Virus record (IMG/VR): IMGVR_UViG_2585427748_000004
Source: a virus
Lineage: Duplodnaviria > Heunggongvirae > Uroviricota > Caudoviricetes
Length of the DNA: 6,942 bases
Reading direction: 5' to 3' (one strand)
The translations under genes were made by a program, and so were the position numbers. Shown piece by piece: positions 3,352 to 4,749 of the stretch; position 1 is the first letter of the stretch; each line of letters begins with the position of its first letter. Under the pieces are notes generated by a model that made no database searches, had not been told where the DNA came from, and saw only the letters and a list, made by a program, of their open reading frames with translations.

Positions 3352-4401
3352 TCAAACGATTAAATCCTGAACTTCCCTGACTGTCTGCTCAAAACGTCCG
3401 GTCTCCAGCTCAACGCCAATCGCACGACGCCCGAGCGCCAGTGCCGCTTTTACCGTTGAACCTGAGCCCATAAAAAAATCTGCAACCAGGTCACCCGGAC
3501 GACTGCTTGCGCTGATTATCTGCTGCAGCATTTCTGCCGGTTTTTCGCACGGATGTTTCCCGGGATAGAACTGCACCGGTTTATGTGTCCACACATCCGT
3601 GTACGGCACCTGCGCCGTCACACCAAAATACCGCCGCAGATGCTTATATTCACTCTGCAGCTCCACATACTGCCGGTTCAGTGACGTATACGTATCCACC
3701 AGCTGGTGGTGGGGCTTTTCCAGTTCACCGCGCTGATGTTTCTCTTCTGCCACCCGGGCAAACAGCGACTGTAATTTCAGATAATCGCTTTCGTTCGGTA
3801 GCTGCCACTGACTGGCACTGAACCAGTGCGACACCATGTTTTTCTTTCCTGTGGCATCTGCAATCTGTTTTGCCGTTATCCCCAGGGCCGCGCACGCATC
3901 ACGAAAGTAAGAAATCAGCGGGGCCATCACATGCTGTTTCAGTGCACTGCCCTTCGCCGCATACCCGGCATCTTTCGGACGATACGGCCCCTGATAATGT
4001 TCCGCGAGCAGAATGCGCTCTGTGGCGGGGAAATACGCCCGCAGGCTTTCCTTGTTGCATCCGTTCCAGCGTCCGGACGGCTTCGCCCAGATAATATGGT
4101 TCAGCACACTGAAGCGTTCACGCATCATGATTTCGATATCAGATGCCAGGCGATGACCACAGAACAGGTAAAGACTTCCGGCAGGTTTCAGCACCCGCCA
4201 GAACTGCGCCAGACACTGGTCCAGCCACTTCAGGTAATCATCGTCGCCCTTCCACTGGTTATCCCAGCCCTCAGGCTTCACTTTAAAGTACGGCGGGTCC
4301 GTGACTATCAGGTCAACAGAATTTTCGGGTAACGACCGGATAAATTCCAGGCAGTCGGCGTTGATTAACTCACAACTGGATATTTTTACAGTATTAAGCA
4401 T
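3352..4401 (-). CDS. DNA methyltransferase, beta-class amino-methyltransferase (N6-adenine or N4-cytosine), apparently orphan
   Basis: 349-aa ORF with motif IV VTDPPYF near the N-terminus and motif I DFFMGSGST near the C-terminus, the beta-class order. No restriction endonuclease candidate lies adjacent: a 65-aa ORF upstream and tRNAs downstream. Confidence 0.9.
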   Translation of the reverse strand: MLNTVKISSCELINADCLEFIRSLPENSVDLIVTDPPYFKVKPEGWDNQWKGDDDYLKWLDQCLAQFWRVLKPAGSLYLFCGHRLASDIEIMMRERFSVLNHIIWAKPSGRWNGCNKESLRAYFPATERILLAEHYQGPYRPKDAGYAAKGSALKQHVMAPLISYFRDACAALGITAKQIADATGKKNMVSHWFSASQWQLPNESDYLKLQSLFARVAEEKHQRGELEKPHHQLVDTYTSLNRQYVELQSEYKHLRRYFGVTAQVPYTDVWTHKPVQFYPGKHPCEKPAEMLQQIISASSRPGDLVADFFMGSGSTVKAALALGRRAIGVELETGRFEQTVREVQDLIV

Positions 4402-4433
4402 GGATCATTAAGCCTGTCTCTGATAGGCTCATT

Positions 4434-4452
4434 CTGCTTTTGCGCAAAGCAG
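4434..4452. promoter_or_regulatory. Near-perfect 19-bp palindrome 33-50 bp upstream of the methyltransferase start; candidate operator or RNA hairpin
   Basis: CTGCTTTTGCGCAAAGCAG, arms CTGCTTT/AAAGCAG around GCGC, with weaker flanking symmetry (AGGCTC...GGGCCT). A second imperfect hairpin, CTGGTGGGGTG...CACCCACCAG, lies at 4495-4524. Confidence 0.3.
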
Positions 4453-4537
4453 TGGGCCTGAGGTTTGCTTGTGAACCCAACGCATGAGCAGATGGCTGGT
4501 GGGTGCCCCTAACACCCACCAGCCGCCCATTTACCAC

Positions 4538-4565
4538 AAATAAAAAAGCCTTCACTGCGGAAGGC
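4538..4565 (-). terminator. Intrinsic terminator on the late strand (second after PR')
   Basis: Stem GCCTTC/GAAGGC (4548-4565) followed on the minus strand by TTTTTTATTT (4538-4547). It overlaps the stop codon of the 65-aa ORF. Confidence 0.6.
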
Positions 4566-4749
4566 GTCTGTAACAACCGAACTGATAGTCTGCCAGATCC
4601 GCCATAACCAGCTGGGTCAGTATTAACTGGCAGCGTTCGCGTGAAAGGTAAGTATTCTGCGCTATCTCCCCGACTGTCGCCGGTTCGGTAACGCTTAATT
4701 CATTAAACACCACTCTGGCGGTTTCTGTCATATCCTGCTGTTTTAGCAT
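4552..4749 (-). CDS. Hypothetical 65-aa protein with a possible helix-turn-helix segment
   Basis: Start taken at the internal ATG at 4749 (MLKQQDMTET...), preceded by AAGGGA 7 nt upstream. The longer track ORF starting at 4836 would begin inside the PR' leader. The segment ATVGEIAQNTYLSRERCQLILTQL looks HTH-like by eye only. Confidence 0.45.
   Translation of the reverse strand: MLKQQDMTETARVVFNELSVTEPATVGEIAQNTYLSRERCQLILTQLVMADLADYQFGCYRRLPQ

Follow-up and report, generated by a model that had tools for sequence, protein, structure and literature searches.

How does a prophage keep silent a DNA methyltransferase that is harmful to the growing cell, and when would it let the enzyme be made? 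The question is raised by a 6,942-nucleotide stretch of Caudoviricetes DNA (IMG/VR virus record IMGVR_UViG_2585427748_000004; hereafter the window, meaning the whole stretch that was analysed), in which an initial annotation, made from the letters alone, had pointed to an orphan beta-class DNA methyltransferase preceded by a small helix-turn-helix (HTH)-like open reading frame (ORF) and a palindrome, and had likened the latter two to a controller protein and its operator. We use MTase for the methyltransferase gene or protein at 3352–4401 on the minus strand and for its homologues. The window is the late-regulatory region of an Escherichia coli lambdoid prophage, read on the minus strand; positions 1–6687 are 100% identical to several E. 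coli chromosomes, and the matches to other genomes end at 6687. On balance we consider it probable that the MTase belongs to an anti-restriction cassette of the lambdoid late operon, gated by its position under the antiterminator Q and by a structured leader RNA. The elements on which this reading depends are, in minus-strand order:

4976–5797, minus strand: late antiterminator Q, 273 amino acids (aa; PF03589 Antiterm, E=5.8e-50)
4931–4970, minus strand: PR'-like late promoter, with -35 TTGATT at 4970–4965, -10 TAAATT at 4948–4943 and a pause-inducing -10-like AACGAT at 4936–4931
4893–4872, minus strand: tR'-like intrinsic terminator from the terminator scan, CCCGCC-GCCT-GGCGGG followed by TTTTTT
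4775–4811, minus strand: motif CTTGCTG-N13/14-CAAGAGTTATTGGTGTGTCA, 35–70 nt upstream of the small ORF, present in 34 of 34 distinct ORF-bearing loci
4552–4749, minus strand: small ORF of 65 aa with an ATG start (RefSeq CDS WP_000917761.1)
4538–4565, minus strand: second intrinsic terminator from the terminator scan, GCCTTC-CGCAGT-GAAGGC followed by TTTTTTATTT, overlapping the small-ORF stop codon
4402–4530, minus strand: structured 5' leader of the MTase mRNA, ~130 nt, delimited by conservation, a covariance model and covariation
3352–4401, minus strand: MTase, 349 aa (PF01555 N6_N4_Mtase, E=3.7e-44)

The MTase carries DPPY at residues 35–38 and FMGSGS at 310–315, the beta-class order in which motif IV precedes motif I, which binds S-adenosylmethionine (SAM). 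It matches PF01555 with 151.7 bits against a cut-off of 26.7, in agreement with the class that had been read from the order of DPPY and FxGxG, and both halves of the protein align to RsrI, CcrM and MboIIA chains. Over its full length the protein is identical to M.EcoGII, which has the same 349 aa, at 329 of 350 positions (94%), the reference being the supplement of PMC11551740 as machine-read text with a few reading errors. M.EcoGII, a beta-class enzyme of 349 aa, comes from a prophage of E. coli O104:H4 C227-11 and is reported (Murray et al. 2018, PMC5778455) to methylate adenine in any context in double-stranded DNA, single-stranded DNA and RNA, to share 333 of 349 residues with M.EcoGI, and to be unexpressed in the lysogen, constitutive clones being slow-growing and unstable. 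The same source names phage 1720a-02 as the bearer of a very similar MTase, and this phage matches our region at 94.6% nucleotide identity. Homologues in O111 Shiga toxin-producing E. coli have been listed as 'nonspecific', with no activity detected in culture (PMC6602927). Judged by sequence, the MTase is a member of the already known M.EcoGII/M.EcoGI family of non-specific N6-adenine enzymes rather than an uncharacterised orphan, and methylation of adenine irrespective of context would be expected of it as of M.EcoGII. The protection of progeny DNA that had been suggested for it fits an orthologue of this kind. Its setting is also that of M.EcoGII, namely a prophage that has no restriction gene: the lack of a visible restriction partner was confirmed, with no restriction endonuclease gene in the window and none annotated in 18.7 kb of the identical prophage. 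Two other names were considered and dropped. M.EcoGIX was considered as the prophage enzyme, and the literature places it on a plasmid, the correct relative being M.EcoGII; no NCBIfam equivalog name applies at its cut-off, the best being PRK11524 at 112 bits against 292.

The position of the MTase is consistent with silence until induction. Q shares 31% identity with its lambda counterpart (E=5e-39), and the stretch from GGTAAATTTG to AACGATGGG aligns with lambda PR' and the lambda pause site, which suggests that the PR'-like site functions as a late promoter and pause element. Everything that defines a lambda-type Q/PR' late operon (Q, PR' with its pause element, and a downstream terminator) was found here, and the MTase indeed lies downstream of PR', between the late promoter and the transfer RNA (tRNA) genes. 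A terminator stands at the tR' position in every related locus, though the stem sequences vary. The hairpin with the small-ORF stop codon in or beside its loop recurs in all orthologous loci, with a T-run that is weaker in most other genera, and every locus, with or without the ORF, has a terminator or hairpin ahead of the leader. From the two upstream terminators and the published behaviour of M.EcoGII we infer that the MTase is silent in the lysogen, where it would be held behind PR', tR' and the second terminator, where the small ORF ends. After induction, only RNA polymerase modified by Q would reach it, so that synthesis would be expected only at that stage, as had been proposed from its place in the late operon. 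A promoter-like site, TTCACC-17-TATACT at 4826–4854 on the plus strand, faces back over tR', PR' and the end of Q and is partly conserved in relatives; it could yield an antisense transcript of the anti-Q type.

Between the small ORF and the MTase lies a spacer of fixed length (149–151 nt) whose nucleotides are better conserved than either flanking coding sequence, as was seen in a first alignment of modules from E. coli, phiP27, a Shiga toxin 2c (Stx2c) phage, Salmonella, Klebsiella and Buttiauxella, in which the spacer measured 149–150 nt. A species-level sample was then drawn with the MTase as query, one genome per species. The leader stands directly upstream of the MTase ATG in 44 of its loci (MTase at least ~60% identical) and is missing from two, L034 and L045. 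Over 47 distinct sequences the mean column identity is 84%, and single-sequence folding gave a z-score of -3.7. Two helices, P1 and P3, came from RNAalifold and single-sequence folding, whilst P2 was found by eye:

4494–4524, minus strand: helix P1, GGCUGGUGGGUG / CACCCACCAGCC, 12 bp with a 7-nt loop and a Chi octamer in both arms
4464–4492, minus strand: helix P2, UCUGCU (4492–4487) / AGCAAA (4469–4464), enclosing the invariant loop CAUG..G(G/U)UCACA
4425–4459, minus strand: helix P3, AGGCCCAC / UGAGCCU, its tip hairpin formed by the palindrome arms at 4446–4452 and 4434–4440
4434–4452, minus strand: palindrome CTGCTTTTGCGCAAAGCAG, 33–51 nt upstream of the MTase ATG
4402–4413, minus strand: MTase initiation region GCUUAAUGAUCC, which lacks a Shine-Dalgarno sequence and is predicted to pair with GGUCACAAGC of the P2 region

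The palindrome had been described as one of 19 bp. It is present at that place, as a 7+5+7 inverted repeat with perfect 7-bp arms (4434–4440 and 4446–4452) around a 5-nt centre and not as a full 19-bp palindrome. Among shuffles of the 150-nt spacer, only 3.7% contain an inverted repeat with arms of 7 bp or more and a loop of 3–8 nt, and 0.75% reach two such repeats, the number that the spacer itself holds; by itself the repeat is thus only mildly unusual, and its conservation is the stronger argument. The core GCTTT-N-GCGC-N-AAAGC occurs once per locus, always at the same position, in more than 100 related loci, and the palindrome is present in related prophages. A search for additional copies that might serve as operator sites found none. 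The arms are 5 nt apart in the window and 6 nt apart in most relatives. Another inverted repeat, AGCCTGTC/GATAGGCT at 4411–4429, which the terminator scan had flagged on the plus strand, is not conserved in relatives and was set aside.

Substitutions in the family largely preserve the pairing. In P1, seven of nine modelled pairs change on both sides and one pair alternates between U.G and U-A; one pair of P2 is C-G in 22, A-U in 11, U-A in 9 and U.G in 4 of 46 sequences, with no mismatch. The tip arms of P3 are invariant in close relatives. In the divergent locus L060, all four helices are rebuilt with different bases, the tip included (CGCGAU-GCGC-AUCGC), and in L069, a weaker match of the leader model, the tip arms are replaced in a compensatory manner (GCUCU/AGAGC). 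A covariance model was made from the three helices and the tip; it scored 136.6 bits on positions 4393–4542 of the window and also found L059, L041, L060 and L069. On both sides, 16 of 27 modelled pairs change, compared with 3.8±1.3 in shuffles and 3–7 in slid controls, in a 49-sequence alignment that was fitted to the model and leans on those four divergent loci, which makes the count supportive rather than definitive. G.U pairs are frequent on the sense strand of the leader and, together with the compensatory changes, they favour an mRNA leader over a duplex-DNA operator or an antisense RNA. Searching Rfam with 4402–4551 (minus strand, E<=1) returned no sense-strand match; the sole hit was P26 on the opposite strand, whose 24 bits fall short of the gathering score of 36. 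A leader peptide starting at the invariant AUGGGCGGCUGGUGG (MGGWWVL...) was considered and rejected: indels break the frame, many loci have an in-frame stop at codon 17, and L056 has TAG at codon 4, which means that conservation acts on the nucleotides and not on a peptide. Two phage contigs, L268 and L276, carry a 40-nt deletion between direct repeats CATCTGCT that removes P2 and the 5' strand of P3 and spares the palindrome and the MTase; they are natural leader mutants.

The end of the leader points to a possible second layer of control. Nearly all of the 47 distinct leaders read GCUUAyUGAUCy before the MTase AUG, and in the RNAalifold prediction the GCU and GAUC immediately before that AUG are paired with GGUC and AGC from the P2 region. 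This long-range start helix and P2 are mutually exclusive; single sequences adopt either one, and the two are nearly isoenergetic. The mean unpaired probability of the start region is 0.32–0.46 in the start-paired form and 0.46–0.57 in the P2 form. If the 12 nt before the start do pair with the P2 region, translation would hinge on which conformation the leader adopts or on a leader-binding factor. Such a two-state switch follows from predicted folds, and it is offered as a hypothesis rather than as a result.

The 65-aa ORF was examined as a coding sequence and as a model. It belongs to phrog_331 (PHROG match 1.3e-36), has been annotated variously as 'TrmB family' or 'DprA-like wH', and its homologues fall into 329 clusters among Enterobacterales (Escherichia, Salmonella, Klebsiella, Citrobacter, Buttiauxella and other genera). 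Among 20 orthologues, variable first, second and third codon positions number 36, 28 and 57 of 63, and codon differences comprise 3859 synonymous and 2538 non-synonymous changes; by these sequence measures the frame is a real gene under purifying selection, conserved as well as coding. AlphaFold2 predicts, with a pLDDT of 91, the order H1-strand-H2-H3-wing of a minimal winged helix, which is in keeping with the HTH-like character first ascribed to it. Searches of PDB and BFVD with the model gave generic winged helices of the MarR, OhrR, IclR, TrmB and MotA types at TM 0.7–0.8. Against Pfam the protein has no HTH_3 match, its weak matches being to winged-helix families (TrmB, E=0.02). It contains two cysteines in the predicted winged-helix fold and has no Com zinc ribbon (PF10122). 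Lambda orf-64 was tried as a homologue and shows no similarity. Upstream of the gene, the motif at 4775–4811 is invariant across the 34 distinct loci in its consensus CTTGCTG-N13/14-C(A/C)AGAGTTATyTGTATGTCA. A promoter (TTGCTG-17-TATTGG) and an operator are both possible readings: the motif resembles a sigma-70 promoter, one that the sigma-70 scan did not call because its -10 hexamer ends in G instead of T, and inspection for dyad symmetry found nothing beyond a 4-base GACA/TGTC match.

The ORF, the leader and the MTase travel together. All three were found in 108 of 116 informative IMG/VR contigs collected with the P1 motif (a leader-centred sample), in 75 of 76 informative ORF-centred phage contigs, and in nine of ten distinct E. 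coli contexts of one ORF variant, the tenth having an insertion sequence (IS) in the MTase. Q types and downstream genes vary among loci, hence the unit moves as a cassette. Scored as ORF, leader and the 5' end of the MTase, it occurs in 2,289 of the 5,426 complete E. coli genomes (~42%), with up to 7 copies per genome. The parts do come apart in two ways. Other genes replace the ORF upstream in 16 of the 44 species-level leader-MTase loci, and the palindrome there is unchanged. Six recombinants (L005, L121, L159, L185, L204 and L273) keep the ORF, the upstream motif and P1, and have P2, P3 and the MTase swapped for an AT-rich segment with a 237-aa HTH-domain gene, so that the P1/P2 boundary is, on sequence comparison, a recurrent exchange point. 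The winged-helix protein is most likely a co-travelling accessory that would regulate the cassette through the leader or through the motif upstream of its own gene; since it is missing from part of the species-level loci, it is not essential to the leader-MTase unit.

More distant relatives add a known type of regulator. Homologues of the MTase in Shewanella and Vibrio (53–56% identity) are preceded by overlapping genes for Mu Com-like zinc-ribbon proteins, of which the one in L063 matches PF10122 above the cut-off (E=3.4e-8) and those in L062 and L069 match more weakly:

2548–3044 of L063: Com-like locus
2880–3041 of L062: Com-like locus
~2829–2940 of L069: Com-like locus

An Ogr/Delta-type late activator gene lies upstream in the Shewanella locus L063. 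In L069, a Vibrio plasmid locus, the leader stands upstream of the Com-like gene and a winged-helix-like ORF is present as well, which means that these elements do not simply replace one another. In Mu, Com activates translation of the harmful gene mom, and Com-linked non-specific adenine MTases have been described in Mu-like prophages (Hin1523, Hia5 and Nma1821; Drozdz et al. 2012, PMC3299994).

Taken together, the reading we hold probable is that the cassette's cargo, an orthologue of M.EcoGII (which methylates adenine in any context and is harmful to the growing cell), would be kept off in the lysogen by position and released by Q, with the ~130-nt leader of P1, P2 and P3, whose P3 tip is the palindrome, as a second layer. 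Whether the leader goes further, as a previously undescribed class of cis-regulatory RNA that is dedicated to a context-free writer of N6-methyladenine (m6A) and works as a partner-controlled switch between two conformations, is a tentative idea that we think rather unlikely; the partner might be the MTase itself, a metabolite, or the winged-helix protein encoded alongside, which would then act on RNA. A bolder proposal is that the winged-helix protein reads or shields phage DNA saturated with m6A.

Several points weigh against the proposed gating, in addition to the limits of the reference text and of the covariation alignment given above. The start region is only moderately paired, with a mean unpaired probability of 0.43, and the long-range helix, though the sequences are compatible with it, consists mostly of invariant columns, has a lone variable pair that is canonical in 29 of 47 sequences, and is without covariation support. 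The ORF, being absent from 16 of the 44 species-level loci, is not an obligatory regulator. The P1-P2 half is also kept without the MTase, both in the recombinants and in lambda, where a P1-P2 remnant was found between orf-64 and S at 45014–45135 (L225 1215–1336). The covariance model gives this remnant 24.8 bits (E ~5e-6), and its P1 has been rebuilt into GGCAGGAGGU/ACCUCCUGCC, with UUUU after it. The P1-P2 half may serve the late operon generally, for example as a tandem terminator. P1 moreover contains Chi, and part of its invariance may have been selected on DNA. Finally, what was directly observed is which enzyme is encoded, how the elements are arranged and conserved, how base pairs covary and how often the parts occur together; that Q permits read-through, that the leader controls translation and whatever part the winged-helix protein may play are steps that we infer.

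The Chi octamers (GCTGGTGG) are in themselves a feature of the window, which holds 7 against 0.27 expected from shuffles, including a back-to-back pair inside the MTase gene:

3696–3703, minus strand: Chi, in the MTase gene
3702–3709, plus strand: Chi, in the MTase gene
4495–4502, plus strand: Chi, in P1
4516–4523, minus strand: Chi, in P1
4833–4840, minus strand: Chi
6537–6544, plus strand: Chi
6589–6596, plus strand: Chi

Of the 47 species-level leaders, 38 have an intact sense-strand Chi in P1, and the nine that have lost it keep the P1 pairing.

Four other explanations deserve to be weighed against gating by position and leader. The initial annotation's own reading was that the 65-aa product is a controller-type factor with the palindrome as its DNA operator, through which it represses or times MTase transcription. 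A predicted winged helix of DNA-binding type, very tight synteny in phage contigs and invariant palindrome arms with one occurrence per locus all speak for it, as does L060, where a very divergent winged-helix-like ORF is paired with different palindrome arms in a manner that would fit co-evolution of a protein and its site. The palindrome and the ORF, however, are each retained without the other, the former unchanged in the ORF-less species-level loci and the latter, with its own upstream motif, in the recombinants that lack the palindrome. An intrinsic terminator also lies between them, the palindrome is embedded in a larger set of helices with G.U pairs and compensatory changes, an arm spacing that varies between 5 and 6 nt is awkward for a rigid dimer site, and neither an Xre-type fold nor a restriction gene, nor the other features that define C proteins, were found. 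We consequently regard the operator as unlikely and do not retain the controller-protein arrangement. Somewhat closer to the evidence, though still rather unlikely, is a Com-like role in which the winged-helix protein binds the leader RNA (e.g., the P3 tip) and switches it to a translatable form, so that the MTase would be made only upon late co-transcription of the ORF. The order of a small regulator, a structured leader and a harmful modification enzyme without Shine-Dalgarno sequence invites this comparison, and so do the true Com-like genes upstream of distant homologues, the two near-isoenergetic conformers predicted for the leader, and unpaired leader segments so nearly invariant that they suggest a specific partner. 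The same gaps in co-occurrence count here as for the operator, no RNA-binding signature was found in the winged-helix protein, and the Vibrio locus with winged-helix-like ORF, leader and Com-like gene side by side shows that the protein is not simply a Com substitute.

A further possibility is that the leader acts without the ORF, as an autoregulatory site that the MTase itself binds or methylates or as a metabolite sensor, for instance of SAM or S-adenosylhomocysteine (SAH), and that the ORF is an unrelated moron or a reader of m6A in DNA. The leader does accompany the MTase with or without the ORF, its loops and joining regions are conserved beyond what hairpins need, M.EcoGII is reported to act on single-stranded RNA (PMC5778455), and winged-helix domains able to sense m6A are described in PMC11037411. 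No riboswitch family in Rfam matches, however, a ligand pocket or pseudoknot is only putative, and linkage of ORF and MTase above 90% in phage contigs is hard to square with an unrelated moron, such that we find this reading as doubtful as the operator. The conservation might, lastly, be selected at the DNA level: the segment would be a Chi-bearing module boundary or recombination sequence of lambdoid phages, its hairpins incidental or extra terminators. The Chi in P1, the excess of Chi in the window, the recombination junctions right after or within P1, and the lambda P1-P2 remnant ending in UUUU are what one would expect from it, and tandem terminators are reported in the lambda late leader. 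We nonetheless think it very unlikely, given that pairing in all three helices and the tip is maintained by compensatory double changes as the sequence diverges, that P1 pairing survives where Chi is lost, and that P2, P3 and the tip always accompany the MTase and are absent from other module junctions.

The remaining genes place the cassette in its prophage. The gene order was drawn from the RefSeq annotation of one identical chromosome and from Pfam, and runs from a DUF968 gene, through Q and the cassette, to a gene for a NanS-p-type esterase that closes it, after an iraM-like gene:

from 6181: DUF968 gene, interrupted at ~6688 by an IS3-family element
5794–6168: RusA
3227–3302, minus strand: tRNA-Ile (CAU, ileZ-type; ARAGORN, Rfam tRNA, RefSeq), at the downstream end of the cassette
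3141–3217, minus strand: tRNA-Arg (UCG; ARAGORN, Rfam tRNA, RefSeq), at the downstream end of the cassette
2683–2876, minus strand: STnc100 copy 3, 138 bits
2472–2647, minus strand: STnc100 middle copy, 30 bits, under the gathering score
2219–2407, minus strand: STnc100 copy 1, 132.5 bits

Phages of the Stx2a, Stx2c, Stx2d and Stx2e types share the segment that runs from the small ORF through the MTase to the tRNAs; in them the cassette lies immediately ahead of the tRNAs and stx. Several side observations were made around it. A degenerate third tRNA at ~3060–3135 (minus strand), argO-like and with the anticodon loop CCTTCTAAG, received no ARAGORN or Rfam call and overlaps a small ORF annotated as DUF3927 (2965–3081). 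Three tandem copies of the small RNA STnc100 (RF02076) lie on the minus strand between the tRNAs and the iraM-like gene, a 111-aa ORF at 1858–2193 on the plus strand (RefSeq: anti-adaptor protein IraM) that sits where Stx phages hold stx; in phage phiSTEC1575-Stx2k an IraM gene is also present, immediately after stx2. At the far end of the window, the IS3-family element (~6688–6942, with transposase orfA from 6741 on the plus strand) splits the DUF968 gene.

Thus the enzyme is known, and what appears to be new is the architecture around it, with two terminators, a covarying three-helix leader that includes the palindrome, and a co-travelling winged-helix gene. A search of the literature for how M.EcoGII-type genes are regulated in lambdoid or Stx phages found nothing relevant. 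M.EcoGII is a widely used reagent and the reference non-specific adenine MTase, and the literature on its control, as far as the sources were available, goes no further than calling it 'not expressed' in lysogens and harmful on expression. Defined control elements make this silencing directly testable, and they bear on how Stx and other lambdoid phages escape restriction in new hosts. Should the leader prove to be a true regulatory RNA, phages would have one more RNA motif, new and very abundant, and if it is a dedicated switch, it would explain how ~40% of E. coli genomes safely carry a genome-wide adenine methylase.

Compared with known systems, the window is closest to M.EcoGII/M.EcoGI in its enzyme, which is alike in length, sequence (94% identity), beta-class motif order, prophage location, orphan status and lambdoid context and has, judged from the sequence, no apparent difference; the available part of the M.EcoGII paper (PMC5778455) reports silence in the lysogen and does not mention a leader, terminators or a winged-helix ORF. 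With lambda late control (Q, PR', the qut pause, and tR' with its 6S RNA) it shares a Q of the PF03589 family, an aligned -10 and pause element, and a terminator after the promoter. It differs in that the terminated transcript would be ~60 nt rather than the 194 nt of lambda, and in that an extra gene, an extra terminator and the MTase cassette are inserted ahead of the lysis genes.

The C proteins of type II restriction-modification systems resemble the window in having a small HTH-class gene and an inverted repeat near an MTase gene. C-boxes, however, sit upstream of the C gene, and C proteins use an Xre-type HTH (e.g., C.PvuII and C.AhdI), whereas the fold predicted here is a winged helix and not Xre-type (HTH_3-like), the repeat lies 100 nt downstream of the ORF stop, past a terminator, and belongs to an RNA structure, and there is no restriction gene. 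The com-mom module of Mu offers a parallel in logic, with a late, host-harmful, broadly adenine-modifying enzyme, a small regulator gene just upstream and a structured start region, and the distant MTase homologues in L062, L063 and L069 have overlapping Com-like genes of their own. The window differs in that its protein is a predicted winged helix without the Com zinc ribbon, encoded 150 nt away rather than overlapping and separated by a terminator, and in that its phage is lambdoid and Q-dependent rather than Mu-like, with a translational mechanism that is only predicted. By analogy, the Com-linked relatives indicate that post-transcriptional locks recur on such enzymes, which makes a regulatory role of the leader, and possibly of the winged-helix protein, plausible.

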